From the NCBI GenBank assembly GCA_017503325.1, contig JAFVTI010000038.1:114428-178427 (forward strand): 64,000 nt of DNA. Direction: 5' to 3'. The notes under the pieces were generated by a model. That model ran no database searches and was not told where the DNA came from. It was given only the letters and a program-made list of their open reading frames with translations. Below, piece after piece: positions 3,753 through 61,082 of the stretch; the stretch's first letter is position 1; the number at the start of each line of letters is the position of its first letter. The stretch is from Clostridia bacterium. Lineage in GTDB: Bacteria > Bacillota > Clostridia > Oscillospirales > CAG-272. Both the position numbers and the translations under genes were made by a program.

Positions 3753-3783
3753 TTCCGCGAAATCAGAAAAAAATTTCGCGGAA
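3753..3783 (-). terminator. terminator hairpin after the metallophosphoesterase gene
   Basis: 11-bp stem TTCCGCGAAAT / ATTTCGCGGAA, followed on the minus strand by CCTTTTTGC. Confidence 0.6.
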
Positions 3784-3796
3784 TCTTAAAAAATTT

Positions 3797-4615
3797 TCAA
3801 TTTGCGGGGACCAGCGTGATCTTGCGCGAGATACCGAGGTACGCGCCGCCCGTGATATACTGCACAAGCCCGGGGGCAAGCTCGTCCTCATGCGAGAAAT
3901 GCAAGTGCCCTGCGATGATGGCGGCAATCCCCGACGCGGGATCACGCACGTACTCGCAAAACGCTTCCGTTGCCTCGTTTTTGAGGATTGCGCCCGGCCC
4001 TATGTTGATATTTCTGCGCCAATCGCGCACCGTATCGTCATGCAGCGAAGGGCAATTGATGGGGATATGCATGCAAAGCAGGATCGGCTTGCCCTTCTCC
4101 TTCAATGCCATGAGAAAATCAATATCCTCCCTCTGCACGCACTCCATGCCGTCGTCAATACCCGCCACGATCAGATCGGGATACTCCAGATAGTGCCGCG
4201 CGACATCACCGTCCGAAAGTGCTGCAAACTTGCCGTAGTGCTGCGCTCTTGCCCCCTCGGTGTGATAATCGTCCGAATACGACCAATCGTGATTGCCTAT
4301 GACAAACATGGTCCCCAGGCCGCCTGCCCCGATCTCTCGATACAGGTCGCGCACGTTGGGGTCGCTTGGCGTATCCACGATATCCCCGGTCATGAGCATC
4401 AGATCTGCGCCCCATTCGCGCGCATCGGCATAAAAGCCCTGCAGCCTTTGCACACAAGGCGTGCCGTCGGTCTCAAAAATACATCTTGCACGCAAGGCCG
4501 CCTCGTCGTGGCGGGATTGCGGGTCGTTCTCTCCCATCCCCGTCAGATGCAGATCGGTGATATGATAAAGCTTATACGTATGCTGTAAGCCTCGGATGGC
4601 AATGGTGGTTTCCAT
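3797..4615 (-). CDS. metallophosphoesterase (calcineurin-like phosphoesterase family)
   Basis: Motifs HITDLHL, GDIVD, GNHDW and GHLH in the canonical order. ATG preceded by AAGGGAGAAAAAT. Confidence 0.8.
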   Translation of the reverse strand: METTIAIRGLQHTYKLYHITDLHLTGMGENDPQSRHDEAALRARCIFETDGTPCVQRLQGFYADAREWGADLMLMTGDIVDTPSDPNVRDLYREIGAGGLGTMFVIGNHDWSYSDDYHTEGARAQHYGKFAALSDGDVARHYLEYPDLIVAGIDDGMECVQREDIDFLMALKEKGKPILLCMHIPINCPSLHDDTVRDWRRNINIGPGAILKNEATEAFCEYVRDPASGIAAIIAGHLHFSHEDELAPGLVQYITGGAYLGISRKITLVPAN

Positions 4616-4678: not shown

Positions 4679-6142
4679 TTAGTAATCGTAGCCGTAGGCC
4701 TCGTAGATCTTCTTGAGCTCCTTGAGCGTCAGATTCTCATTCTTGGAAATGTCTCTGGTGATAGAGGCACTCTTTTCGTTAAGCGAGGTCTGAGCGATGG
4801 ATGCGCAAGGCAGATTGCCGAAGTGCGTATAGCCAAAGTCGAATACCTTGTGACGGATGATCACGTCAACCATCTCTGCGGACTCGGGGTCACGTGCATT
4901 CTTGGACTTAGCAACCTTATCGTACAGGGTATCGGTCACCATGTAGTAAGAGGTGGAAGCCAGGACCTCCAGCAAGTAGCCGGCATCCTCCAAAGCCTCA
5001 TCATCAAGGCTTACGGGTATGCATGCAGTGGGAGCAGCACCGTTTACGAATCCCAGGTACTCAGCCTGCTTCTCATCGTACTTAGGCTGAGGCAGGATAC
5101 CGAATTCGGTCTCCATCTCGCGCAGGCTCGTGCCATCGATCAAGGAACCTGCAAAGAACAGTGCTCTGCCCGACTTGAATACGTTGATGGGCTCAGCATA
5201 CATGGAGTTGTTTGCCAGGTATTCCTTTACGGTTACGTGGAAGGACTGCTGGGTCACAACCAGCTCGTAGATCTTGTCGTAGATCGTCTGCAGTCTGTCG
5301 GCGTTGGGCTGATAGACGGGCAGGTGGTCCTCGTCAAAGGTGAACATGGTGCAGCCGGAGCCAAACCAGAAGTTATAGTCACTTGCCATAGACCAACCTG
5401 TCAAACCGTAGAAGTCGTCGGTATAGTTTATCTTACCGTCACCGTTAAGGTCATTGGTCTGATCCTTGGTGATTTCCAGCATGTCGTCAAGTGTCCAGGT
5501 GCCGTTTCTTGCATCTTCATAAGGATAATCAAGGCTCTGCTCGTCGAACAGGGTCTTGTTGAACATCATAGCAGCGGTGAGCATCATAGAGGTAGGCAGC
5601 AGGTCGCCGCAGACCACAAACATGTTGTCACCGAACATAAAGCCGTTCTTGCAATCCTGGTCCCACCAGGGGTTGTCAAAGTTGACGTACTCCAGATCAG
5701 TCAGGTTATACAGACAGTTGCCCATACCCAGGCTGGTAGCAGCATCAACCATGTGCTGGTAAATGATGTGATACTCACCACTACCCGAGCTGACGTCATT
5801 CTTGACCTTCTGGCTCAGAGCGAGGTAGTCAAGCTCAACAATAGGATTGAGCTTTACACCGTAGTGGTTTTGAATCTTGTCGTTTCTTCTGTAAATGGCA
5901 TCCTCCAGGGGGTCGGATTTGTCCGGCTCATCAGAACCCATATCAGTCTCTGTCTGTACCAGAAGATTGAACTCCTTGCCATTCAGATCCTCATTAGGCT
6001 CCAGATCAGCACTGATCCACTGGGACTCTTCTTCGGAGGAGTCACCGGAAGACTTTTCATTTTCGTCAGTGTCAGCACAACCAACGAACATGCTGATCAG
6101 CATAAGGCCGCACAAAAGCATAGCTAAGAGCTTTTTGTACAT
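4679..6142 (-). CDS. SBP-like surface lipoprotein, tandem paralog 1
   Basis: MYKKLLAMLLCGLMLISMFVGCADT lipobox. Ends ..YEAYGYDY. Shares long identical blocks with paralogs 2 and 3 (NPWWDQDCKNGFMFGDNMF, FGILPQPKYDEKQ, VLASTSYYMV.DTLYDKVAKSKNARD). Confidence 0.6.
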   Translation of the reverse strand: MYKKLLAMLLCGLMLISMFVGCADTDENEKSSGDSSEEESQWISADLEPNEDLNGKEFNLLVQTETDMGSDEPDKSDPLEDAIYRRNDKIQNHYGVKLNPIVELDYLALSQKVKNDVSSGSGEYHIIYQHMVDAATSLGMGNCLYNLTDLEYVNFDNPWWDQDCKNGFMFGDNMFVVCGDLLPTSMMLTAAMMFNKTLFDEQSLDYPYEDARNGTWTLDDMLEITKDQTNDLNGDGKINYTDDFYGLTGWSMASDYNFWFGSGCTMFTFDEDHLPVYQPNADRLQTIYDKIYELVVTQQSFHVTVKEYLANNSMYAEPINVFKSGRALFFAGSLIDGTSLREMETEFGILPQPKYDEKQAEYLGFVNGAAPTACIPVSLDDEALEDAGYLLEVLASTSYYMVTDTLYDKVAKSKNARDPESAEMVDVIIRHKVFDFGYTHFGNLPCASIAQTSLNEKSASITRDISKNENLTLKELKKIYEAYGYDY

Positions 6143-6190
6143 GCTTGTTCCTTCTTTCGTATTTATTTTTTTGCATAGGTATACGCATTC

Positions 6191-6219
6191 ATTCTATCAC
6201 AAGAGTAAATTGTTGTCAA
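6191..6219 (-). promoter_or_regulatory. sigma-A-type promoter of paralog 1
   Basis: Minus strand reads TTGACA (6219-6214), 17 nt, TAGAAT (6196-6191), with TGTGA just upstream of the -10. Confidence 0.6.
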
Positions 6220-6286
6220 GGAAATAGTCATTGATTGTCAAGAAAAGAGTCATTGATTGTCAAGAAAAGAGTCAATAATTGACAAG
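6213..6286. repeat. three tandem 22-bp direct repeats (TTGTCAAGAAAAGAGTCATTGA) ending in the palindrome GTCAAT-A-ATTGAC
   Basis: Units at 6213-6234, 6235-6256 and 6257-6278. Palindrome at 6271-6283. Each unit carries TTGACA on the minus strand. Confidence 0.8.
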
Positions 6287-6328
6287 AATAATTTCGGCCA
6301 CATTTTGTGCAATTTGACACAAACAAAA

Positions 6329-6353
6329 AGAAACCCGCACGTGGCGGGTCTCT
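6329..6353 (-). terminator. terminator after paralog 2
   Basis: CCCGC-ACGTG-GCGGG core with extended imperfect stem. The minus strand continues TTCTTTTTGTTTG. Confidence 0.65.
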
Positions 6354-6374
6354 TGGTGGGTATTCGAATATCAA

Positions 6375-7844
6375 TTAGTAATCGTAGCCGTAAGCCTCGT
6401 AGACCGTCTTGAGTGCCTTGAGGGTCTGATTTTCGCTCTTGGAAATGTTTCTGGTGATAGAGGCACTGCCGCTGCCGAGCGAAGTCTGAACAATGGTTGC
6501 ACAAGGCAGACCCTGAACGTGGAAGTGGGTGTAACCAAAGTCGAATACCTTGTGACGAATGATCACGTCAACCATCTCGGCGGACTCCTCGTCACGTGCG
6601 TTCTTGGACTTAGCAACCTTATCGTACAGGGTATCGGTTACCATGTAGTAAGAGGTGGAAGCCAGAACCTCCAGCATGTAGCCGGCATCAGCAAGTGCTT
6701 CCGCGCCAAGGCTCTTGGGCACGCATGCAGTGGAAGCCGATCCGTTTACAAAGCTCAGGTACTCTTCCTGCTTCTCGTCGTACTTGGGCTGAGGCAGGAT
6801 ACCGAATTCGTCCGCCATCTCGCGGAAGCCGGTACCATCGGACAGGGAGCCTGCAAAGAACAGCGCTCTGCCTGCCTTGAATACGTTAGCAGGCTCAGCG
6901 TAAATAGCACTGTTAGCCTGGAAATCCTGCATGGTTACGTGGAAGGCCTGCTGAGTAATGATCAGCTCATAGATCTTATCGTAAATGGTCTGCAGTCTGT
7001 CAGTATTGGGCTGATAAACGGGCAGGTGATCCTCGTCAAAGGCGAACATGGTTGCACCGGAGCCAAACCAGAAGTTGTAGTCGCAAGCCAGAGTCCAGCC
7101 TGCAAGGCCGTAGAAGTCGTTGGAGTAGTCGACCTTACCGTCACCGTTGAGGTCACGGGTCTGGTCCTTAGTGATCTCCAGCATGTCGTCAATGGTCCAG
7201 GTGCCTTCTCTTGCATCCTCATAAGGATAATCAATGCTCTGCTCGTCGAACAGGGTCTTGTTGAACATCACGGAGGCGGTGATCATCATGGACGAAGGCA
7301 GCAGGTCGCCGCAGATCACGAACATGTTGTCACCAAACATAAAGCCGTTCTTGCAGTCCTGGTCCCACCAGGGGTTGTCAAAGTTGACGTAATCCAGCTC
7401 GGTCAGATTGTACAAATTACCACCGGTACCGAGGTTGGTTGCTGCGTCTACCATATGCTGGTAAACGATGTGGTATTCACCACTGCCCGAGGTAACGTCG
7501 TTCTTGACCTTCTGGCTAAGCGCACTGTAGTCAATTTCAACCAAAGAGTTGAGTTTGACACCGTAATAGTTCTGGATCTTGTCGTTTCTTCTGTAAACGG
7601 CGTCCTCCAGGGGGTCGGATTTGTCCGGCTCCTCTGCCCCCATATCGGTCTCACTCTGTGTAAGGATGTTGATATCCTTACCCTTCAGACCCGGGTTGGG
7701 CTCCAGATCAGCGCTGATCCACTGGGACTCTTCTTCGGAGGAGTCACCGGAAGACTCTTCATTTTCGTCAGTGTCAGCACAACCAACGAACATGCTGATC
7801 AGCATAAGGCCGCACAAAAGCATAGCCAAGAGCTTTTTGTACAT
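6375..7844 (-). CDS. SBP-like surface lipoprotein, tandem paralog 2
   Basis: Same signal peptide/lipobox and the same C-terminal YEAYGYDY as paralog 1. Full-length ORF of 489 aa. Confidence 0.6.
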   Translation of the reverse strand: MYKKLLAMLLCGLMLISMFVGCADTDENEESSGDSSEEESQWISADLEPNPGLKGKDINILTQSETDMGAEEPDKSDPLEDAVYRRNDKIQNYYGVKLNSLVEIDYSALSQKVKNDVTSGSGEYHIVYQHMVDAATNLGTGGNLYNLTELDYVNFDNPWWDQDCKNGFMFGDNMFVICGDLLPSSMMITASVMFNKTLFDEQSIDYPYEDAREGTWTIDDMLEITKDQTRDLNGDGKVDYSNDFYGLAGWTLACDYNFWFGSGATMFAFDEDHLPVYQPNTDRLQTIYDKIYELIITQQAFHVTMQDFQANSAIYAEPANVFKAGRALFFAGSLSDGTGFREMADEFGILPQPKYDEKQEEYLSFVNGSASTACVPKSLGAEALADAGYMLEVLASTSYYMVTDTLYDKVAKSKNARDEESAEMVDVIIRHKVFDFGYTHFHVQGLPCATIVQTSLGSGSASITRNISKSENQTLKALKTVYEAYGYDY

Positions 7845-7892
7845 GCTTGTTTCCTTCTTTCGTATTTATTTTTTGCATAGGTATACGCATTC

Positions 7893-7921
7893 ATTTTATC
7901 ACAAGAGTAAATTGTTGTCAA
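7893..7921 (-). promoter_or_regulatory. sigma-A-type promoter of paralog 2
   Basis: Minus strand reads TTGACA (7921-7916), 17 nt, TAAAAT (7898-7893). Confidence 0.6.
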
Positions 7922-7988
7922 GGAAGAAGTCATTGATTGTCAAGAAAAGAGTCATTGATTGTCAAGAAAAGAGTCAATAATTGACAAG
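7915..7988. repeat. second copy of the 3 x 22-bp repeat plus palindrome block
   Basis: Units at 7915-7936, 7937-7958 and 7959-7980, then TTGACAAG. The whole 232-bp spacer 7845-8076 is near-identical to 6143-6374. Confidence 0.8.
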
Positions 7989-8030
7989 AATAATTTCGGC
8001 CACATTTTGTGCAATTTGACACAAACAAAA

Positions 8031-8055
8031 AGAAACCCGCACGTGGCGGGTTTCT
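8031..8055 (-). terminator. terminator after paralog 3
   Basis: Perfect 10-bp stem AGAAACCCGC / GCGGGTTTCT with loop ACGTG, and a T-run on the minus strand. Confidence 0.7.
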
Positions 8056-8076
8056 TGGTGGGTATTCGAATATCAA

Positions 8077-9546
8077 TTAGTAATCGTAGCCGTATGCCTC
8101 GTAGATCTTTTTCAGAGCCTTAGTGGTCTGCTTTTCGCTCTTGGTAATGTCTCTGGTGATAGAGGCACTCTTGCTGTTGAGTGCAGTCTGAACGATGGAT
8201 GCGCAAGGCAGGCCATCGTTGTGGAAGTGGGTATAGCCAAAGTCGAATACTCTGTGACGGATGATGACGTCAACCATCTCAGCGGACTCCTCGTCACGTG
8301 CGTTCTTGGACTTAGCAACCTTATCATACAGCGTATCGGATACCATGTAGTAAGAGGTGGAAGCCAGAACCTCCAGCATGTAGCCGGCGTCTGCCAGAGC
8401 ATCCTCGGAAAGGCTCTTGGGTACGCATGCGGTGGAAGCTGCACCGTTGACGAAGCTCAGGTACTCTTCCTGCTTCTCATCGTACTTGGGCTGAGGCAGG
8501 ATACCGAATTCGTTCTCCATCTCGCGCAGACCCGTACCTGCGGACAGGTAGCCTGCATAGAACAGTGCTCTGCCTGCCTTGAATACGTTGGAGGGCTCCT
8601 CATACATCGAGTTGTTGGACAGGTATTCCTGAACGGTTACGTGGAAGGACTGCTGGGTCACGATCAGCTCGTAGATCTTATCGTAGACGGTCTGCAGTCT
8701 GTCGGTGTTGGGCTGATATACGGGCAGGTGATCCTCGTCAAAGGTGAACATGGTGCAGCCTGCGCCGAACCAGAAGTTGTAGTCACAGTCCAGCGACCAG
8801 CCTACAAGGCCGTAGAAGTCGTCGGTGTAAAGTACCTTACCGTCACCGTTGAGGTCACGGGTCTGGTCCTTGGTCATCAGCAGCATGTCGTCGATGGTCC
8901 AGGTGCCGTCTCTTGCATCCTGATAAGGATACTCAAGGCTCTGCTCGTCAAACAGGTTCTTGTTGAACATAACGGCAGCGGTGATCATCATAGAGGAAGG
9001 CAGCAGGTCGCCGCAGACCACGAACATGTTGTCACCGAACATGAAGCCGTTCTTGCAGTCCTGGTCCCACCAGGGGTTGTCAAAGTTGACATACTCCAGG
9101 TCGGTCAGGTTATACAGGCAGTTACCCATACCCAGGTTGGTAGCAGCGTTTACCATGTGCTGGTAAACGATGTGGTATTCACCACTACCGGAGCTTACGT
9201 CGTTCTTGACCTTGTCGCCAAGTGCAACGTAGTCAAGCTCAACCAGCGGATTAAGAGTCACGCCGTAGAAGTTCTGGATCTTGTCGTTTCTTCTGTAAAC
9301 GGCATCCTCCAGGGGGTCGGATTTGTCCGGCTCCTCTGCGCCCATATCGGTCTCGGAGTTTGCAAGAATATTGATCTCCTTGCCCTTCAGACCCTCATTG
9401 GGCTCCAGATCGGCACTGACCCAGTTGGTCTCTTCCTCGGTGGAGGCATCGGTAGAGGTTTCCTCTTCACCGGTGTCAGCACAGCCGACGAATACGCTGA
9501 TCAGCATCAGGCCGCACAAAAGCATAGCTAAAAGCTTCTTGTACAT
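8077..9546 (-). CDS. SBP-like surface lipoprotein, tandem paralog 3
   Basis: MYKKLLAMLLCGLMLISVFVGCADT. 489 aa. Ends YEAYGYDY. Confidence 0.6.
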   Translation of the reverse strand: MYKKLLAMLLCGLMLISVFVGCADTGEEETSTDASTEEETNWVSADLEPNEGLKGKEINILANSETDMGAEEPDKSDPLEDAVYRRNDKIQNFYGVTLNPLVELDYVALGDKVKNDVSSGSGEYHIVYQHMVNAATNLGMGNCLYNLTDLEYVNFDNPWWDQDCKNGFMFGDNMFVVCGDLLPSSMMITAAVMFNKNLFDEQSLEYPYQDARDGTWTIDDMLLMTKDQTRDLNGDGKVLYTDDFYGLVGWSLDCDYNFWFGAGCTMFTFDEDHLPVYQPNTDRLQTVYDKIYELIVTQQSFHVTVQEYLSNNSMYEEPSNVFKAGRALFYAGYLSAGTGLREMENEFGILPQPKYDEKQEEYLSFVNGAASTACVPKSLSEDALADAGYMLEVLASTSYYMVSDTLYDKVAKSKNARDEESAEMVDVIIRHRVFDFGYTHFHNDGLPCASIVQTALNSKSASITRDITKSEKQTTKALKKIYEAYGYDY

Positions 9547-9696
9547 ACTTGTTTCCTTCTTTCATAATATTTTGCATAGGTATACACCTACATTCTACCA
9601 CAAGAGTCTGTTCTTGTCAAGAAAAATTTTCAACCCCGATTTTATATAGTCGAAGCCTGCACCGCGGTGCAGGCTTCTCTTCTTTGTTTCGTTTTA

Positions 9697-11172
9697 TCAG
9701 CCGTCGTAGCCGTACGCCTCCAGGATCTTATCCAGTTCCTTTCGGGTATTCTTTTGCGAATTGGTCAGATCTCTGACAATAGAGGGACGCTTATCCTGCA
9801 GCGCAACCATAATGATATTGGAGCACGGCAGATTCTTGTGTGAGAAATGCAGATAGCCGAAATCAAAGACCTTGTGACGGATGATGATGTCCACCATTTC
9901 GGCAGACTCCTCGTCGCGCGCGTTCTTGGACTTGGCGATCACGTCGTACAGCGTATCCGTTACCATATAATAAGACGAGGACGCCAGCGCCTCCATCATA
10001 AAGCCGGTGGTCTCCAGCTTTTGCTCGGACAGGCTGACGGGGACGATCGCAACGCTTGCAGCCGCGTTGACAAAGCCGAGATAATCCTTTTGCGTTTCGT
10101 CATACTTGGGCTGCGGCAGGATGCCGTAGTCGTCGATCATATCACGCAGATTGGTGGTGATGGACAGATTGGTGGGAAACAGCAGCGCACGTCCGTCACG
10201 GAACACCTCAATGGTGCCAAAATACAGATTGTTGTCCTTGAGATACTCGTTATAGGTCAGGTGGTAGGTATCGGGAGACAGCAGCAGCGCGGCGGTCTTC
10301 TCATAGATCGACTGCAGCTTATCGGTGTCGGGGGCAAAGGTGGGAATGTGCTGATCATCGTAGGTGAACATGGTCGCGCCCGCACCGTAAAAGAAGTTAT
10401 AGTCGCAGTCCAATGCCCAAGAGGTAATGCCGAAGAAATCGTCGGTGTACAAAATCTTGCCGTCACCGTTGAGGTCCTTGGCCTGGTCCTTGATCATGCC
10501 CTGCATATCGTCCATGGTCCACGTGCCTGCTCTTGCATCCTCGTAAGGATATTCCCAGCCGCGCTCATCAAACAGATTCTTGTTGAACAGCACGGATCCC
10601 GGGATCAGCTGCGTTGTGGGGATCAGGTCGCCGCAGGCCATCATCATATGATCGCCGATGGCAAGACCGTTCTTGCAGTCCTGGTCCCACCAGGTCTGAT
10701 CAAAGTCCACAAATTCCAGCTCGGACAGATCGTACAAATAGCCGCCCAGGGCGAGATTGTACGCAGCGTTGCCCATATGCTGATATACGAGATTGAATTC
10801 CCCCGTTCCGGCAGCCGTATCGTTCTTGATCGCATCCGCGATCACGTCAAGGCTTGGCTCGTCGGAGTTGTTGAATACGATCCCGTATTCTGTCTGCAGT
10901 CTGTCGTTTCTGCGGTATACTGCATCCTCAAGCGGATCGGACGAATTTTCCTCCGGGCCAATATCATATCGGCTTTGCGCCAAAATGACGAATTCCTGAC
11001 CCGCAAGCGGCGTTTCAAGCTTGGAAGGGTCCAGCGTCTCGGCAACCCAAAGCTCCTTTTCTTCAGTCGCCTCCGAGGACTGCTCCTCATTTTCCCCTTG
11101 CGCGCAGCCCGCAAGCAAGCCCACAAGCATCAAAGCACTCAAAAGCAAACATAAAATTCTGTCTTTCATCAT
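9697..11172 (-). CDS. SBP-like surface lipoprotein, tandem paralog 4 (more divergent)
   Basis: ATG at 11172 or 11169 after GTGAGG. MMKDRILCLLLSALMLVGLLAGC lipobox. Conserved blocks WWDQDCKNG, YGILPQPKYDE, KSKNARDEESAEMVDIIIRHKVFDFGY. Ends EAYGYDG. Confidence 0.6.
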   Translation of the reverse strand: MMKDRILCLLLSALMLVGLLAGCAQGENEEQSSEATEEKELWVAETLDPSKLETPLAGQEFVILAQSRYDIGPEENSSDPLEDAVYRRNDRLQTEYGIVFNNSDEPSLDVIADAIKNDTAAGTGEFNLVYQHMGNAAYNLALGGYLYDLSELEFVDFDQTWWDQDCKNGLAIGDHMMMACGDLIPTTQLIPGSVLFNKNLFDERGWEYPYEDARAGTWTMDDMQGMIKDQAKDLNGDGKILYTDDFFGITSWALDCDYNFFYGAGATMFTYDDQHIPTFAPDTDKLQSIYEKTAALLLSPDTYHLTYNEYLKDNNLYFGTIEVFRDGRALLFPTNLSITTNLRDMIDDYGILPQPKYDETQKDYLGFVNAAASVAIVPVSLSEQKLETTGFMMEALASSSYYMVTDTLYDVIAKSKNARDEESAEMVDIIIRHKVFDFGYLHFSHKNLPCSNIIMVALQDKRPSIVRDLTNSQKNTRKELDKILEAYGYDG

Positions 11173-11286
11173 AAACCTCACTGTTTTCGGTATTTATACG
11201 AATATCATATCACATACTTTGCCGTCTGTCAAGAGAGCCGGGTCACACATGACCCGGCTCTCTTTATATTTGATTTGTTCGGTTGA

Positions 11287-12768
11287 TCAATCGTAGCCGT
11301 AAGCTCTCAGAATCTTCTTGAGCTCGTTTCTGGTTCTTCTCTCGGAGTTGGTGATCTCCTTGACGATCGAGGTTCTGTTTGCCTGCAGCGCGGTCTGGGC
11401 GACGTTGAAGCAGGGGAAATCCTGACCGGAGAAATGCGAATAACCAAAGTCAAACACCTTGTGACGGATGATAATATCCACCATTTGTGCAGATTCCTCG
11501 TCACGAGCGTTCTTGGACTTGGCCACAACGTCGTAAAGGGTATCCGTGGTCATGTGATAGGACGAGGACGCCAGCGCTTCCATCATAAAGCCTGCGACCT
11601 CCAGATTAGCATCGCTCAAGCTGCCCGGCACGCACGCCATGCTTGCGCTGCCGTTGACAAAGCCGAGGTAATCCTCCTGCTTTTCATCATACTTGGGGTT
11701 GGGCAGGATGCCGTAGTCATCCACCATATCACGCAAGGAAGTAGTCGTAGACAGGTAGGTCGGGAAGAACAGCGCTCTGCCGTCTCTGAACACATCGATG
11801 GTCTTGTTGTACATGCCCGGATCTGTTTCGTACTGTGCCCAGATCACGTGGAAGGAATTCTGCGTGATCAGCAGCTCGTAGATCTTTTCGTAAATTGCCT
11901 GCAATCTGTCGGTGTCGGGATCAAATACGGGCAGGTGGTCCTCGTCGTAGGAGAACATGGTCGCACCCGAGCCAAAGAACAGATTGAAGTCTGCGTCGGC
12001 TGCCCATGCGGTCACACCGAAGAAATCGTCGTCGTGGAAGATTCTGCCGTCACCGTTGAGGTCCTTGGTCTGGTCCTTGGTCAGCTCCAGCATATCGTCC
12101 ATGGTCCAGTTCCCTTCCCGTGCGTCCTCGTAAGGGTAATCCCAGCCGTTGCGGTCGAACAGGTTCTTGTTAAACAGGACCGTTGCAGTGATCAGCATCG
12201 TCGAGGGCAGCAGGTCGCCGCACACCATCATCATGCTGTCGCCAATGACAAAGCCCTTCTTGCAATCCTGGTCCCACCACTCGTTATCAAAATTGACGTA
12301 TTCCAGATCGGTCAGGTTATACAGATAATTGCCGGGAGCCAGGCTGCGCGCTGCCTCGATCATGTGCTGATACACGATGTGGAATTCACCCGTGCCCGCG
12401 GTCACGTCGTTTTTGACGTTGGTGGAAATAACCGCGAAATCGGGCTGGTACTGATTGTTGAATTCAATGCCCAGCTCTGCCTTGAGCTTGTCGTCTCTTC
12501 TGTAAACGGCATCCTCAAGCGGGTCGGACGAATTTTCCTCGGGGCTGATATCGTACTTGTTGTACGCCAGAATGTTGATCTCCTGTCCCTGCAGGCTGAC
12601 GCTCAGCTTCTCGGGATCCAGCTCAGGGTTCATCCAATACGTTTCCTCTTCGGTAACGCCCTGGGAGCCCTCCGGGGTCTCTCCCTGATCGGGCTTATCC
12701 ACGCAGCCTGCAAGCACGGCAAGCAGCATAAGCACACCGAGAAGGATGCATAAGAGTCTGATCTTCAT
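11287..12768 (-). CDS. SBP-like surface lipoprotein, tandem paralog 5
   Basis: ATG at 12768, 8 nt after AGAGAGG. MKIRLLCILLGVLMLLAVLAGC lipobox. Same conserved blocks as paralog 4. The ORF-track start at 12774 is a TTG. Confidence 0.6.
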   Translation of the reverse strand: MKIRLLCILLGVLMLLAVLAGCVDKPDQGETPEGSQGVTEEETYWMNPELDPEKLSVSLQGQEINILAYNKYDISPEENSSDPLEDAVYRRDDKLKAELGIEFNNQYQPDFAVISTNVKNDVTAGTGEFHIVYQHMIEAARSLAPGNYLYNLTDLEYVNFDNEWWDQDCKKGFVIGDSMMMVCGDLLPSTMLITATVLFNKNLFDRNGWDYPYEDAREGNWTMDDMLELTKDQTKDLNGDGRIFHDDDFFGVTAWAADADFNLFFGSGATMFSYDEDHLPVFDPDTDRLQAIYEKIYELLITQNSFHVIWAQYETDPGMYNKTIDVFRDGRALFFPTYLSTTTSLRDMVDDYGILPNPKYDEKQEDYLGFVNGSASMACVPGSLSDANLEVAGFMMEALASSSYHMTTDTLYDVVAKSKNARDEESAQMVDIIIRHKVFDFGYSHFSGQDFPCFNVAQTALQANRTSIVKEITNSERRTRNELKKILRAYGYD

Positions 12769-12802
12769 TTGCAAAACCTCTCTTTAATATAGAATTACCT
12801 GT

Positions 12803-37789: not shown

Positions 37790-37945
37790 TGCCTGCATCG
37801 CTTACGGCGGGCATCAGTAGTGAAATGTTTCGCATAGCGAAACGTGAAATATTTCGCCGAGGGCGAAATGTGAAATTCGCGCTGCGCGCGAGTGATATGT
37901 TTCGCTGCGCGAAACGTTAAGGTGGAAATTTGCCGGGAGGCAAAT
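37786..37945. repeat. array 1: six short perfect stem-loops, five of them preceded by the heptamer GTGAAAT or a variant
   Basis: See findings. Heptamers at 37820, 37844, 37870, 37892 and 37922. Hairpins at 37786-817, 37827-43, 37851-69, 37877-91, 37899-915 and 37928-45. Confidence 0.8.
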
Positions 37946-37991
37946 TTCAATTTAATCAAAATTTTTCTACCTGTTTTACGAGGTAATTCCA

Positions 37992-57295: not shown

Positions 57296-57400
57296 ACCGC
57301 ATAAAAAATCAGGGGTGCTGAAGGCCAAGAGCCAACGGCTGAGATGCGCAGGCGCGCGAACCCTTAACCTGATACGGATAATACCGGCGTAGGAAGATTT
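57296..57400 (+). promoter_or_regulatory. TPP (THI-box) riboswitch
   Basis: CAGGGGTGC...GGCTGAGA...GAACCCTTAACCTGATACGGATAATACCGGCGTAGGAAG matches the THI-element core. Confidence 0.9.
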
Positions 57401-57425
57401 GCACATACTTGAGATAGGAATTCCT

Positions 57426-57647: not shown

Positions 57648-58319
57648 ATGAATACCTCACAAAAAACCAAACGTCTGACCGTCAGCGCGATCATGCTGGC
57701 AACCGCGGTCATTCTCGCGCTGATCAGCTCGCCCATCCCGCCCCTGCCCTTTGGCGGCAGCTTCACCATTGCAAGCATGCTTCCCATCGTGCTGATTGCC
57801 TACATGTACGGCACCAAATGGGGACTGTTTTGTGCGTTTACCTACTCGGTCATTCAGATCATCATGGACCTGATGCTTGGCAAGGGCTCAACCCTGCTTG
57901 CCTATTTCCTGCCCTCAAGCGAGGACTTTATGGGCTTTGGCGTCGCGATCGGCATTTTGCTGCTTGACTACTTCGTTGCCTACACCGTGCTGGGTCTTGG
58001 CGGCGTATTGAGAAACAAGATGCACAAGGTGCCTGCCATCATCCTTGGCGTGCTCATCGCGCTTGGCGCACGCTACGCAGTGCACATTGGCTCGGGATTT
58101 CTCTTCTTTGCATCGTGGGCAGAATGGTTCTTTACTCAAGAGAGCATTTACGCAATCGGCAGCGTCATTCTCGACACCTTCAGCGGGCACGTGCTGTCCA
58201 TCGTTTACTCGATCATCTACAATGGCACCTACATGATCCCCGAGATCGTGATCACCGCCATCTGTTCCTCGGGCGTTGCATGGATCCCCTACATCAAGAA
58301 ATACGACGTCAAGTCTTGA
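57648..58319 (+). CDS. thiT: thiamine transporter ThiT/YuaJ (ECF S-component-like)
   Basis: Six predicted TM segments. Immediately downstream of the TPP riboswitch. SD AAAGGAGGAGG. Confidence 0.75.
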   Translation: MNTSQKTKRLTVSAIMLATAVILALISSPIPPLPFGGSFTIASMLPIVLIAYMYGTKWGLFCAFTYSVIQIIMDLMLGKGSTLLAYFLPSSEDFMGFGVAIGILLLDYFVAYTVLGLGGVLRNKMHKVPAIILGVLIALGARYAVHIGSGFLFFASWAEWFFTQESIYAIGSVILDTFSGHVLSIVYSIIYNGTYMIPEIVITAICSSGVAWIPYIKKYDVKS

Positions 58320-58350: not shown

Positions 58351-58714
58351 TGCAGCTTGGCTAAACGGCCGCGCCGTATGTTGCCGAAAGGTATTACGGT
58401 GAGGAAAGTCCGGGCTTTACAGGGCAAGGGTAGCTGATAACGTCAGCCGCGGGTAACCGCCGGGAAAGTGCAACAGAAATAAACCGCCGCGCATGCGGTA
58501 AGGATGGAAAGGCGAGGTAAGAGCTCACCCACTTCTATGGTAACATAGATTTGCTGTAAACCCTACTCAAAGCAACACCGTTCGGGGAATGTCTGCCCGA
58601 CAGCCGCAAGGACCCGATGGGTGGCATGAGCGTTATGCTCGGAGCTTCTTGGTGACAAGGAGCAAAGATAGATGGCCGTTCTCGACAGAACCCGGCTTAC
58701 AGGCAAAGCTGCAA
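58351..58714 (+). ncRNA. rnpB: RNase P RNA (bacterial type A-like)
   Basis: GAGGAAAGTCCGGGC (P4 5' strand), AGTGCAACAGAAA, ACAGAACCCGGCTTAC (P4 3' strand). P1 pairs GCAGCTTGGC with GCAAAGCTGC. TGTGCTATAAT promoter at 58334-44. Confidence 0.9.
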
Positions 58715-58755
58715 AAAACGCTGACGCGTTGCGTCAGCGTTTTTTGCAGCTTTGC
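58703..58755. terminator. 25-bp perfect inverted repeat (bidirectional terminator) overlapping the rnpB 3' end
   Basis: GCAAAGCTGCAAAAAACGCTGACGC-GTT-GCGTCAGCGTTTTTTGCAGCTTTGC. Confidence 0.8.
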
Positions 58756-58756
58756 A

Positions 58757-58882
58757 GTTATGATTGCCCTGCGGGCAGCTTGAAGTAACAAGGGAAATCA
58801 TATCATAACGATGCGAAGCATCTCATAACTTTTGCCGCAGGCAAAATCATAACGCTTGCAAAGCAAGCTCATAACTCATAAC
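58757..58882. repeat. array 2: short perfect stem-loops separated by the heptamer TCATAAC
   Basis: TCATAAC at 58803, 58823, 58847, 58869 and 58876. Inverted GTTATGA at 58757. Hairpins at 58765-77, 58810-22, 58830-46 and 58854-68. Confidence 0.8.
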
Positions 58883-59009
58883 TTTTTCACACTTTTTTCT
58901 TTCATTTTGTGAATCCCGACAAAAATTGATTTTTTGCTGACATTCCCTTGCAAGCAGGCCGACTTTGTGCTATAATGTATTCGTAGATTTATGCCATAGG
59001 AGCACCCTC

Positions 59010-60155
59010 ATGAAAGAATTCCACATCGGTACACAGATATATTTCGGCGAGTCGGCATTGGACAGACTTTCCGAGATCGGCTTTGATCGTGTCATCATCT
59101 TAGCCGATCCCTTTGTCGTGACCTCGGGTCTTGTCAAGCACGTCACAGATAAGCTGGACGGCGCGGGCGTGAGCTATGCCCTGTTTACCGATATCGTGCC
59201 CGATCCCCCCGTAGACAAGGTAATTGCGGGCGTGGCCGAGGTGCTCAAGGGCAAATACCCCTGCATGATCGCAGTGGGCGGCGGCTCTGCCATTGATACC
59301 GCCAAGGCGGTGCGCAAGTTTGCAGGCCAGATTGAGCCCGGCTATGCACCGCGACTGATCGCCATTCCCACCACGTCGGGCACGGGCAGCGAGGTAACCT
59401 CGTTTGCCGTGATCTCCAATCCCGCCGAGGATAAAAAATATCCGCTTTGCTCCGACGATATGATGCCCGAGGAGGCTATTTTGGACGAGGTGCTGGTCAA
59501 ATCCGTGCCTGCGGCCATTACGGCAGATACCGGCATGGACGTGATGACTCACGCCATCGAGGCTTACGTCAGCACCAACAACAATGAGTTTTCGGGCGCA
59601 CTTGCCGAAAAGGCAGTGGAGATCTGCGGTCAGTTTCTCATCCGCTCCTGGGCAGATAACAACGACGCGCACGCGCGCCGTAAGATGCATATTGCAGCAT
59701 GCCTTGCGGGCATCGCCTTCAATTCCGCCTCTCTTGGCCTTGTGCACGGCATGGCACACCAGCTGGGCGCACACCTGCACATTCCGCACGGCCGTGCTTG
59801 TGCGCTTCTGCTTCCCTCGCTGATCGAATACAACAGCGGCATTACCACCTCTTCCAGATCGCAGGCCGAATATCCGCCCTGCGTGCGCAAATATTGCAAC
59901 GTGGCAAGAATTCTGGGCGTGAGCAACTTCAACGAGATCACCACCGTACGCGCACTGATCAGCTACGTTCACTTCCTCTCGCAGGAAATGCACATGCCCG
60001 CGCACATATCCGAGGCGACCAACGTCTCGCACGAGGAATACCTCGCCTTGGTCGAAACCATGGCAGAGGGTGCTTTGTCAGACTCCTGCACCGCAACCAA
60101 TCCCCGCGTGCCCACCAAAGCCGAGGTCGTGGAGATTTATAAGGCAATTTGGTAA
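59010..60155 (+). CDS. iron-containing (group III) alcohol dehydrogenase, EutG/PduQ-like
   Basis: ATG at 59010 after ATAGGAGCA. GGGSAIDTAK, PTTSGTGSEVT, metal-binding His cluster HGMAHQLGAHLHIPHG. Confidence 0.85.
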   Translation: MKEFHIGTQIYFGESALDRLSEIGFDRVIILADPFVVTSGLVKHVTDKLDGAGVSYALFTDIVPDPPVDKVIAGVAEVLKGKYPCMIAVGGGSAIDTAKAVRKFAGQIEPGYAPRLIAIPTTSGTGSEVTSFAVISNPAEDKKYPLCSDDMMPEEAILDEVLVKSVPAAITADTGMDVMTHAIEAYVSTNNNEFSGALAEKAVEICGQFLIRSWADNNDAHARRKMHIAACLAGIAFNSASLGLVHGMAHQLGAHLHIPHGRACALLLPSLIEYNSGITTSSRSQAEYPPCVRKYCNVARILGVSNFNEITTVRALISYVHFLSQEMHMPAHISEATNVSHEEYLALVETMAEGALSDSCTATNPRVPTKAEVVEIYKAIW

Positions 60156-60206: not shown

Positions 60207-60272
60207 AATAGTCACATTTCTCCGCTATGTCGTAATTCATCCCTCGCAGGCGAATAGAGTTGGTAGATGCTC

Positions 60273-61082
60273 TTATTGAGCATCCATCTCCGCTCCGCCC
60301 CACTCTACTACACAAAATCCCTTGCGTTCAAACGGCTCAAACGTCTGCGGTTCGATTTCTACCGCCTCGCTAAGCGGCATATACGCCATAAACACGCGCA
60401 GCAGACTGTCGGGCGCGGGATTGATCTCCAGGACAGCCGAATCGGTATACGCGTCTGTCTGGAAGCTGATTAGATTGTAAGCGTTGTTCTGCATGCGAGG
60501 CAGCCAATAAATGATAAACTCATTGGCCTCACGGGGACTCAAACCCTGCTTAGCCAAAGCCCACTCCAAAAACGCCTCGGTATCCGCGCCAGAAACGCAA
60601 AAGCCCTTGGAGAAATCATATTCCGCATCGCTCTTTCCTTCCCAGAACAGGCAATAATACTGCTTACCGTCGGGGAATGTCAGCGTGCCGTCGGGATGTG
60701 CGACAAAATTCTGCCAGCCAAGCGTGCCGTGCGCGGGATAGGTGAAGGTCAGCTCACCGTTCAAAAGCACGCGCACGTCGCATTCGGTGGGTACTTCGGG
60801 ATACAGATAAACGACCGGCTTTTCTTCAACCACCTCATCGGTACAAACGTGGGTATCCACCTCGGTGGTCTGCTCCTCGGTCGTTTGTTCCTCGGTCGTT
60901 TGAGGATCGGTGTTCGGGATATCGGGCAAAACGTCGGTCTCGATCGGCTCGGGATCGGTGGGATAGGTGCCCGCTTGGGTGCTCTGCGCGTCAAGGCCGT
61001 AAACGGGATCGTTGTTTGCACATGCTGCAAGTGCAAACAGGCACAGAATCATTGCCATACATAAGCTCAGTTTTTTCATCAT
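60273..61082 (-). CDS. lipoprotein of unknown function
   Basis: MMKKLSLCMAMILCLFALAAC lipobox. TTEEQ repeats. No family that I recognise. Confidence 0.65.
   Translation of the reverse strand: MMKKLSLCMAMILCLFALAACANNDPVYGLDAQSTQAGTYPTDPEPIETDVLPDIPNTDPQTTEEQTTEEQTTEVDTHVCTDEVVEEKPVVYLYPEVPTECDVRVLLNGELTFTYPAHGTLGWQNFVAHPDGTLTFPDGKQYYCLFWEGKSDAEYDFSKGFCVSGADTEAFLEWALAKQGLSPREANEFIIYWLPRMQNNAYNLISFQTDAYTDSAVLEINPAPDSLLRVFMAYMPLSEAVEIEPQTFEPFERKGFCVVEWGGAEMDAQ

Follow-up and report, generated by a model that had tools for sequence, protein, structure and literature searches.

What is the train of short hairpins that lies between rnpB and adh in a gut Clostridia bacterium, and does it serve either of these genes? 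The stretch of DNA analyzed here, hereafter the window, covers 64,000 nt of an Oscillospirales genome (assembly GCA_017503325.1, contig JAFVTI010000038.1, positions 114,428 to 178,427). In the spacer between rnpB and adh, the heptamer TCATAAC precedes each of several small hairpins (array 2), and a second such train is found elsewhere in the window (array 1). Our analysis indicates that array 2 is very probably a partly decayed, heptamer-shifted copy of a dispersed composite repeat of about 170 nt carried by uncultured Clostridia of the gut (Oscillospirales and related groups). Rfam lists the left arm of this composite repeat as the Gut-1 RNA motif.

The coordinates and sequences given for array 2 in a preliminary description of the window proved correct base for base, and the features are collected in Table 1. 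The train begins at 58756 (A-GTTATGAT) and directly abuts a 25-bp perfect palindrome (P0), with the leading heptamer GTTATGA at 58757-63. TCATAAC stands at 58803, 58823, 58847, 58869 and 58876, and the right-arm hairpins are GATGC-gaa-GCATC (58810-22), TTTTGCC-gca-GGCAAAA (58830-46) and GCTTGC-aaa-GCAAGC (58854-68), followed by TCATAAC TCATAAC. Five of the eight TCATAAC copies in the window fall within this 80-nt stretch. All stems are perfectly Watson-Crick paired, the loops are 3 nt long and U tracts are absent, while the fold has a z-score of about -4.3 on both strands, calculated as RNA or as DNA. As TCATAAC comes after each unit hairpin, none of these qualifies as an intrinsic terminator (GC-rich hairpin plus U tract), and the only + strand intrinsic terminator in the array 2 region is that of rnpB (58726-58740 with its T-run). 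A chance cluster of small palindromes around a repeated word has a negligible probability; all that could be said for it is that short palindromes are generally in excess across the window. It is refuted by a comparison with shuffled sequence, of the kind that the preliminary description had proposed: the window contains two trains with three or more perfect hairpins at a spacing of 6-8 nt, namely arrays 1 and 2, compared to a mean of 0.01 and a maximum of 1 in 200 dinucleotide shuffles. Conservation in relatives and a significant score with the family model introduced below also speak against chance.

Relatives were gathered as ADH homologues, from 98% to about 70% identity, and their contigs were fetched. 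Metagenome contigs from the same species (L001-L011) are identical over arrays 1 and 2, and are therefore uninformative on evolution. The rnpB-adh spacer of L015 and L016 (ADH 89%) contains a fuller array, where a three-hairpin left arm with GTTATGA and GTGATGA linkers mirrors the TCATAAC right arm. Compared to L015, the window has a clean 47-nt deletion of two left-arm units; in the right arm the stems are the same, one loop differs (aaa/gca) and one heptamer is TCATCAC. The inverted leading heptamer of array 2, which had been singled out earlier, is meaningful: it is what remains of the mirrored left arm that L015 has in full. At the same position, L018 (ADH 88%, GCA_045587385.1) carries GAATACCAC/ATATCAC plus hairpin units. 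A hairpin-train scan of the fetched DNA detected ATATCAC arrays downstream of adh in 94% and 98% relatives and none there in the window, and L012, with a 98%-identical adh gene, has no array upstream of it. The presence differences in the 3' flank of adh and the 47-nt unit indel show that arrays come and go between close relatives, i.e., the suggested comparison of orthologous spacers did reveal units gained and lost.

The wider family was examined by a pattern scan for ATATCAC-N11-20-ATATCAC-N11-20-ATATCAC in one genome per species, which returned at least 120 stretches. The carriers among the matches listed are about 109 metagenome-assembled genomes (MAGs) of human and ruminant gut origin, which are either unclassified or bear labels such as Clostridia, Oscillospiraceae, Acutalibacteraceae, Christensenellaceae and Eubacteriales. 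About 11 other pattern matches among those listed (Planctomycetes, Prevotellaceae, Methanothrix etc.) are without hairpins, and no non-Clostridial pattern match among the 100 loci searched with the family model matched it. A perfect hairpin and nothing else makes up 231 of the 312 distinct spacers. Hairpin-filled spacers were found in 85 of 125 Clostridial ATATCAC trains, compared to 2 of 140 TCATAAC trains from metagenomes and 3 of 123 ATATCAC trains from viral contigs. There is one other true hairpin-filled TCATAAC train, a two-armed array at an unrelated locus (L255) with GTTATGA in the left and TCATAAC in the right arm. The shifted heptamer therefore represents a rare subfamily in which both arms changed together, and the window copy has the same joint alteration (GTTATGA/TCATAAC) in addition to its two deleted left-arm units.

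The canonical element is about 170 nt long, bipartite and mirrored. It opens with a long perfect palindrome, followed by CA-GTTWTAT. In some copies this palindrome is an intrinsic terminator that is bidirectional (GAAAAAA-stem-loop-stem-TTTTTTC), and in the others it is a GC-rich hairpin. The left arm has four hairpins: TCGCC-n-GGCGA, GTKATAT plus TGC-ttc-GCA, GTGATAT plus TCGGC-nnnn-GCCGA, and GTGRTAT plus a hairpin of 3-5 bp. After the center, GTTTnnnnGGCGAATAWA, the right arm continues with ATATCAC plus TGAARCC-gyaa-GGYTTCA, two more ATATCAC plus hairpin units and usually a closing fourth ATATCAC. The first right-arm hairpin and the center are the most sequence-conserved parts of the right half. 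A mirrored left arm is present in 68 of 125 arrays. Of these 68 two-armed elements, 40 have the long palindrome at their left end and 3 have it at their right end. The upstream open reading frame (ORF) is directed into the two-armed element in 25 of 32 cases. In elements with a GC-rich palindrome (e.g., L032, L083, L118 and L126), an A-run, often TAAAAAA with the upstream stop codon, is located a constant 10-14 nt ahead of the palindrome.

Array 2 follows this plan part by part: AGTTATGAT equals the start, GTAACAAGGGAAATCATA corresponds to GTTAAGGGCGAATATA, and the TCATAAC units form the right arm. The segment 58778-58802 is not filler but the counterpart of the conserved center of the family, and P0 occupies the slot of the long terminator-like palindrome found ahead of canonical elements. 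The left arm of P0 includes the last rnpB bases (3' strand of helix P1), so that its right arm repeats rnpB sequence in inverted form; the counterpart of this palindrome in L015 is imperfect. For the second right-arm hairpin, the stem TTTTGCC/GGCAAAA also occurs in L054, and stem and GCA loop together are identical to the second right-arm hairpin of L024. The minus strand of the center contains an extended -10-like TG-n-TATGAT, with a promoter-like site from 58826 to 58797.

A family model, R1, was built as a covariance model from 22 canonical two-armed elements, with a shortened calibration that makes its E-values rough. R1 scores array 3, a full element of the same species just outside the window, at 154.5 bits, L015 at 54.3 bits (full length), L018 at 48.6 bits and array 1 at 46.8 bits (minus strand). 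Array 2 is matched at 58736-58875 on the plus strand with 35.4 bits (E 7.8e-6) and with the parts in the same order, while nothing beyond arrays 1 and 2 was found in the 64-kb window at E ≤ 10. This agrees with the earlier proposal of a single dispersed family, of which the two arrays are oppositely oriented members.

Canonical left arms match Gut-1 (RF01706) at the Rfam gathering threshold with 52-64 bits, and in L030 the right arm gives a match as well, on the opposite strand. Array 1 reaches 48.0 bits (E 8.6e-9), which is 2 bits below the gathering threshold of 50 bits, and its heptamer equals the Gut-1 consensus linker GUGAAAU. The arms of array 3 score 29 and 32.5 bits. The statement in the preliminary description that no such family had been described must therefore be withdrawn, as Gut-1 combines covarying short hairpins with a constant GUGAAAU linker. 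Array 2 shares with Gut-1 the presence of at least three consecutive short hairpins with a constant 7-nt linker (three perfect hairpins and an identical heptamer). However, on the Gut-1 strand its linker reads GUUAUGA and not GUGAAAU or GUGAUAU, and no Gut-1 match was obtained for 58650-59000 at E ≤ 10 on either strand. By its R1 match and the lack of a Gut-1 match, array 2 is therefore a diverged member of the larger family but falls outside the published Gut-1 model. The flanks of the Gut-1 seed alignment already hold the ATATCAC arm and upstream terminators, but the Rfam model is limited to the left arm. The 43 representatives from which Gut-1 was described all stem from metagenome sequence of the human gut, with no sequenced organism among them (Weinberg et al., 2010, Genome Biol 11:R31, PMC2864571), and within the library searched there was no later literature on Gut-1.

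The reality of array 1 as a train of constant linkers and perfect hairpins was confirmed. Its linkers are GTGAAAT three times, then GTGATAT and then GTTAAGG, each followed by a perfect hairpin, and the array sits within the lon-engB-lysA transcription unit. Array 3 is placed between the terminator-like palindrome of a melibiase gene and the promoter of a 99-aa ORF. The heptamers of arrays 1, 2 and 3 are ATTTCAC, TCATAAC and ATATCAC, each uniform within its array, and three heptamers in one genome argue against a single sequence-specific heptamer reader and for concerted change within arrays. This genome holds three copies and a possible remnant in about 70 kb. The remnant candidate has a 7-bp hairpin, the loop of which holds the stop codon of ORF 60273..61082(-), and then CAACTCTAT-TCGCC; the family model finds no match there at E ≤ 10. 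An unbiased search of the 64 kb for short words repeated at 12-32 nt spacing gave no additional intergenic train.

Table 1. Features of the rnpB-adh spacer and related elements. Positions refer to the window unless a locus is named.
Feature	Position	Strand	Remarks
rnpB	58353-58715		RNaseP_bact_a, 226.5 bits
P0, 25-bp perfect palindrome	58703-58755		includes the rnpB intrinsic terminator (A-run, hairpin, T-run); reaches into the rnpB 3' end
Array 2, left end A-GTTATGA-T	58756-58764	+	counterpart of canonical AGTTWTAT start; reverse complement of right-arm heptamer
Array 2, lone remaining left-arm hairpin TGCCC-tgc-GGGCA	58765-58777	+	three in L015; window short by 47 nt, i.e., two units
Array 2, degenerate center GCTTGAAGTAACAAGGGAAATCATA	58778-58802	+	from model alignment of L015 and the window; matches canonical GTTnnnnGGCGAATAWA
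Array 2, right arm	58803-58882	+	counterpart of canonical ATATCAC plus C(GNA)G hairpin train
adh promoter-like site	58948-58976		adh ATG at 59010
Array 1	37820-37948	+ (Gut-1 orientation)	one arm, between engB and lysA; five perfect hairpins
Array 3	L001 11198-11367		same species; full canonical two-armed element, linker ATATCAC; about 200-380 nt past the right end of the window (= L001 10991)
Tentative solo left-end remnant	60236-60296	-	GGATGCTC-aataa-GAGCATC, then TACCAACTCTAT-TCGCC-tgc-GAGGG; by eye, against left-end variants 'CAACTCTATTCGCC'
Elements behind tRNA clusters	L028, L030, L035, L044, L051, L054, L059, L068, L070, L075, L076, L090, L136

The alignment of 22 sequences allows the folding to be assessed. 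In the local hairpins 97.3% of the cells are paired, compared to 34-49% with slid partners, and the number of double-change cells is 128 against 33 expected, which was reached by none of 500 shuffles. G·U accounts for about 1% of the variable stem cells. This pattern of substitutions shows the units to be under selection to form independent mini-hairpins. The stems had been described as variable and perfectly paired, of which the perfect pairing stands while the variability is not free, as the stem at a given place in the train is preserved from one species to another and changes through compensatory substitutions. In addition, a long-range 12-bp helix between the 5' end (AGTTWTATTCGCC) and the center (GGCGAATAWAAT) reaches 98.9% pairing and has one position that is cleanly either A-U (13) or U-A (9); this helix competes with the first local hairpin. 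A macro-hairpin in which left-arm and right-arm heptamers pair was rejected because uncompensated mismatches affect as many as 11 of 22 sequences; the real helix is the one from the 5' end to the center.

The hairpins also have a polarity. Read on the ATATCAC strand, 140 of 160 perfect hairpins are closed by a C-G pair, and the loops are GAA, AAA, GCA, GTA and GNNA, never TNC. Left-arm loops on the + strand are the exact complements, i.e., a mirror image. C(GNA)G triloops are exceptionally stable in DNA, and GNRA tetraloops in RNA. Near-perfect stems of the right arm contain 19 G·T vs. 10 A·C, and the ratio is reversed on the + strand of the left arm (2 vs. 6). Judged by loop type and wobble bias, the favored strand appears to be antisense to the Rfam Gut-1 orientation, with L035 7422-7593 as an example from the alignment. 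Linker variants on the sense strand are all G-free (ATATCAC, TCATAAC, ATTTCAC, ATACCAC and ATATAAC), which fits with a segment meant to remain unpaired.

The genomic placement of the elements shows no attachment to a particular gene. Among 333 flanking ORFs of about 125 arrays no shared protein family was found (largest cluster 4), so a gene-specific regulator or a linked protein partner was rejected, in line with the earlier view that array 2 does not regulate a specific gene. The only recurrent neighbor, and a rare one, is a protein of about 120 aa that starts with MSDSILRDKSK and follows the right arm in L024, L039, L104 and L107; we take it to resemble the four-helix-bundle ('23S rRNA intervening sequence') proteins. 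A check of orientation relative to genes, as proposed in the preliminary description, gave a divided answer: single-arm arrays are unbiased with respect to flanking genes (10/10/6/5), while the bias of upstream ORFs mentioned above is found for two-armed elements. To the right of the elements promoters are not enriched (9 of 95 arrays vs. 6 and 4 in controls).

Several observations show the elements to be dispersed. L066 carries two copies 2.7 kb apart that are near-identical from AGTTATAT on and have unrelated left flanks, which sets the left boundary of the family at AGTTATAT; since copy B is cut by the contig end, the duplicate defines the left boundary only. A second copy is present at 9 of 100 loci, several MAGs were matched on two contigs, and contig ends often fall within arrays. 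Two copies in direct tandem occur in L113 (1896-2033 and 2050-2187), and a 37.8-kb predicted viral contig of about 60% GC (L303) has arrays at 3759-3890 and 4234-4377 on either side of a small gene. A phage origin was rejected, as true elements account for only 2 of 120 viral-contig pattern matches. At least 13 of 60 loci have a co-oriented tRNA gene directly upstream, where the element stands behind the last gene and the terminator of a tRNA cluster, and eight tRNA identities are represented. L059 has two full copies in mirror orientation with a tRNA gene ahead of each. Array 2 sits behind rnpB in the same manner as these elements sit behind tRNA clusters.

The G·U scarcity, mirrored arms, unbiased single arms, lack of a recurrent neighbor, multiple copies, turnover and contig breaks point to a repeat that acts at the DNA level. 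By analogy, we tentatively propose an extragenic palindromic repeat of the repetitive extragenic palindrome (REP)/bacterial interspersed mosaic element (BIME) or REPIN type as the mechanism, a reading that falls slightly short of an even chance, while identity and a REP/BIME-like mechanism taken together we regard as evenly balanced. On the ATATCAC-reading strand, each unit would be selected to fold alone into a mini-hairpin of high stability with a C(GNA)G cap, with stems held different from each other so that units do not cross-pair, and the G-free linker would remain single-stranded. The single-strand fold and the short linker might be recognized during copying, or be selected at landing sites. 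The dead space that follows a strong terminator would then be where copies settle or are tolerated, above all behind genes for stable RNAs such as tRNA operons and rnpB. Array 2 would most likely have no specific role for rnpB or adh, and only add hairpins between a terminator and the next promoter.

REP, BIME and REPIN elements of Proteobacteria, which are mobilized by REP-associated tyrosine transposases (RAYTs), resemble the composite repeat in that short extragenic palindromes are arrayed with short constant linkers near gene 3' ends, often as inverted pairs. In both, compensatory changes preserve the hairpin and a short conserved motif stands on its 5' side, and a high copy number per genome may be another shared trait. 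However, REP stems share one sequence per genome, while here the stems differ per unit and array and the linker alone is constant. BIME units alternate, whereas units within an arm are co-oriented here, the host is Clostridial, and no candidate for the RAYT or other HUH partner suggested earlier recurs next to the elements. Miniature inverted-repeat transposable elements (MITEs), e.g., the Correia elements of Neisseria, are similarly non-coding and intergenic, about 100-200 bp long, with mirrored ends, presence/absence between strains and promoter- or terminator-like sequence. The composite repeat does have terminal inverted repeats (GTKATAT ... ATATCAC, and the 12-bp inverted repeat that is 98.9% complementary), but its interior consists of seven individually covarying mini-hairpins and not of free sequence, and no target-site duplication or parent insertion sequence was found. 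Gut-1 itself shares three to four short covarying hairpins, the constant 7-nt linker, the gut metagenome origin and a terminator ahead. It differs from array 2, which has GUUAUGA/UCAUAAC linkers and one left-arm hairpin, and from the composite element, which is two-part, multi-copy and dispersed.

Some of our results weigh against a REP/BIME-like repeat. Apart from the L066 pair, within-genome copies are 56-68% identical, unlike a recently active repeat, and elements at orthologous tRNA loci retain all seven hairpins across species, which resembles purifying selection for a host function. No mobilizing enzyme was identified among the flanking ORFs of the elements, and no target-site duplication or pair of empty and filled sites was found, with copy B of L066 ending at a contig end. 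The pooled wobble bias in the ATATCAC sense (25 G·T vs. 12 A·C) is modest and compatible with RNA as well as with single-stranded DNA. The internal promoter-like arrangement (36 of 62) and the clean long-range covariation fit a transcribed structured RNA at least as well. Furthermore, Gut-1 was rated as an RNA on covariation and as not cis-regulatory, with no function proposed (Weinberg et al., 2010, PMC2864571).

The main rival to the DNA-level repeat is a small RNA (sRNA) gene on the strand opposite to that of Rfam, which we consider possible but rather unlikely. Transcription would run leftward through the left arm and give four C(GNA)G/GNRA-capped hairpins joined by AUAUCAC, from a promoter with the -35 TTGAAA in the first right-arm hairpin and TG-n-TATTAT in the center, and would stop at the bidirectional terminator on the upstream side. 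Array 2 would in this case represent a gene copy, weakened or dead, that converges on rnpB. Consistent with this, 36 of 62 two-armed elements have a leftward promoter-like site with a score of 9 or more vs. 6 of 62 for the mirror arrangement, the parts holding this site are those most conserved in sequence in that half, and TG-n-TATGAT is kept on the minus strand of array 2. In both arms the ATATCAC strand is the one favored by loop type and by G·T vs. A·C, tRNA-type loci have terminators in the form of perfect bidirectional palindromes, and the long-range helix (P1) covaries as described. That Gut-1 is an RNA was rated as certain by Weinberg et al. (2010, PMC2864571). On the other hand, right-arm hairpins 2 and 3 would be upstream of the promoter and yet covary equally strongly, which an sRNA gene leaves unexplained, as it does the single-arm arrays. 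About 1% G·U is unusual in a real RNA family, and the GC-rich left-end palindromes, with a minus-strand T-run 10-14 nt past the hairpin, have poor terminator geometry. The promoter likeness may be a by-product of AT-rich conserved motifs, and high copy number, decay and presence/absence differences are atypical of sRNA genes. A rightward promoter from the TATAAT of the center was rejected, as a -35 is absent and 6 of 62 elements score at least 9. The DNA-level repeat and the sRNA gene are not mutually exclusive. A further reading, which we hold to be speculative and on the whole improbable, is that Gut-1-type trains are a new kind of genetic unit defined by structure, each a self-contained cassette (bidirectional terminator, train, internal promoter and mirrored train) that spreads to the 3' flanks of stable-RNA genes and strong terminators. 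Its identity would reside in a G-free linker plus any stable C(GNA)G hairpin rather than in sequence, so that Rfam would describe half of it, on the non-functional strand. Such a cassette might yield a small RNA from many copies, or it might serve an enzyme as a recognition module in single-stranded DNA.

A cis-acting RNA is less probable still. Read-through transcripts of the train would block 3'-to-5' exonucleases or the train would act as a back-up terminator or insulator, by which rnpB would be protected or terminated and adh shielded. E. coli REPs act in cis as exonuclease barriers and terminators. Two-armed elements do begin right at a terminator and point away from the upstream gene in the 25 of 32 cases, they are enriched behind highly transcribed stable-RNA genes (here rnpB), and array 1 lies within a transcription unit. 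However, the unit hairpins have no U tracts, single-arm arrays lack orientation bias, and the thermodynamically favored loops of the proximal arm are on the strand antisense to the upstream gene. In addition, the 98%-identical adh of L012 has no upstream array, and the element is placed after, not before, an already strong terminator. It is very improbable that the heptamers are duplex-DNA sites (iteron-like or arm-type) for a sequence-specific protein, arranged as inverted arrays ahead of the adh promoter and others, and that the palindromes are incidental. A constant heptamer at 20-26 bp spacing in mirrored arrays and the location of arrays 2 and 3 upstream of promoters would fit such sites, but three heptamers in three arrays of one genome make a single reader protein unlikely, the variation in spacing implies that helical phasing is lost, and promoters are not enriched by the right arm. 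The strong selection on the spacers to pair would also be left unexplained.

Other resemblances to known systems were considered and rejected. Array 2 is like a CRISPR array in that constant and variable segments alternate at a regular period, but the constant part is 7 nt and not 23-50 nt, the variable parts are self-complementary hairpins of 11-19 nt conserved by position, and there are no cas genes or foreign-derived spacers. A mimic of the tRNA-Met anticodon loop (UCAUAAC as U33-CAU-A37-A38-C) does not fit, as the heptamer is between stems and not in a loop and the usual heptamer of the family is ATATCAC. An integron attC site would have its inverse-core and core boxes in another order and much longer units. 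Resemblances to parS, cre, the DnaA box, the lambda operator half-site TATCAC and the CRISPR 5' handle each fit few copies at most.

Two other features of the window were seen. Directly before rnpB, a thiamine transporter gene of the ThiT/YuaJ type (57648-58319) is preceded by an ordinary TPP riboswitch (57301-57412, 67.9 bits). Five tandem paralogous genes for extracellular solute-binding proteins of about 490 aa (weak SBP_bac_8 match), about 1.6-1.7 kb apart, occupy 4679-12774 on the minus strand, and their spacers hold three to four direct 22-nt repeats (AAGAGTCATTGATTGTCAAGAA; 6201-6288 and 7903-7990) that are operator- or iteron-like and have no relation to the trains of hairpins.

The left half of the composite repeat has been known as Gut-1 since 2010, from a one-sentence description with no function. 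Our results add named carriers, which are MAGs of Oscillospiraceae, Acutalibacteraceae, Christensenellaceae and related gut Clostridia of humans and ruminants, and indicate that Gut-1 as catalogued is only the left half of a mirrored two-part element of about 170 nt. This element is multi-copy, dispersed and turning over, it prefers the 3' flank of tRNA and rnpB terminators, and the strand favored by its loops and wobble pairs appears to be opposite to the annotated one. In practice, the elements break short-read assemblies and should be masked in gene calling and motif hunting, where they are not to be taken as gene-specific regulators of rnpB, adh or lysA. An orphan RNA motif thereby becomes a concrete question for the biology of these gut Clostridia, i.e., whether it is a mobile palindromic repeat or a multi-copy sRNA cassette.

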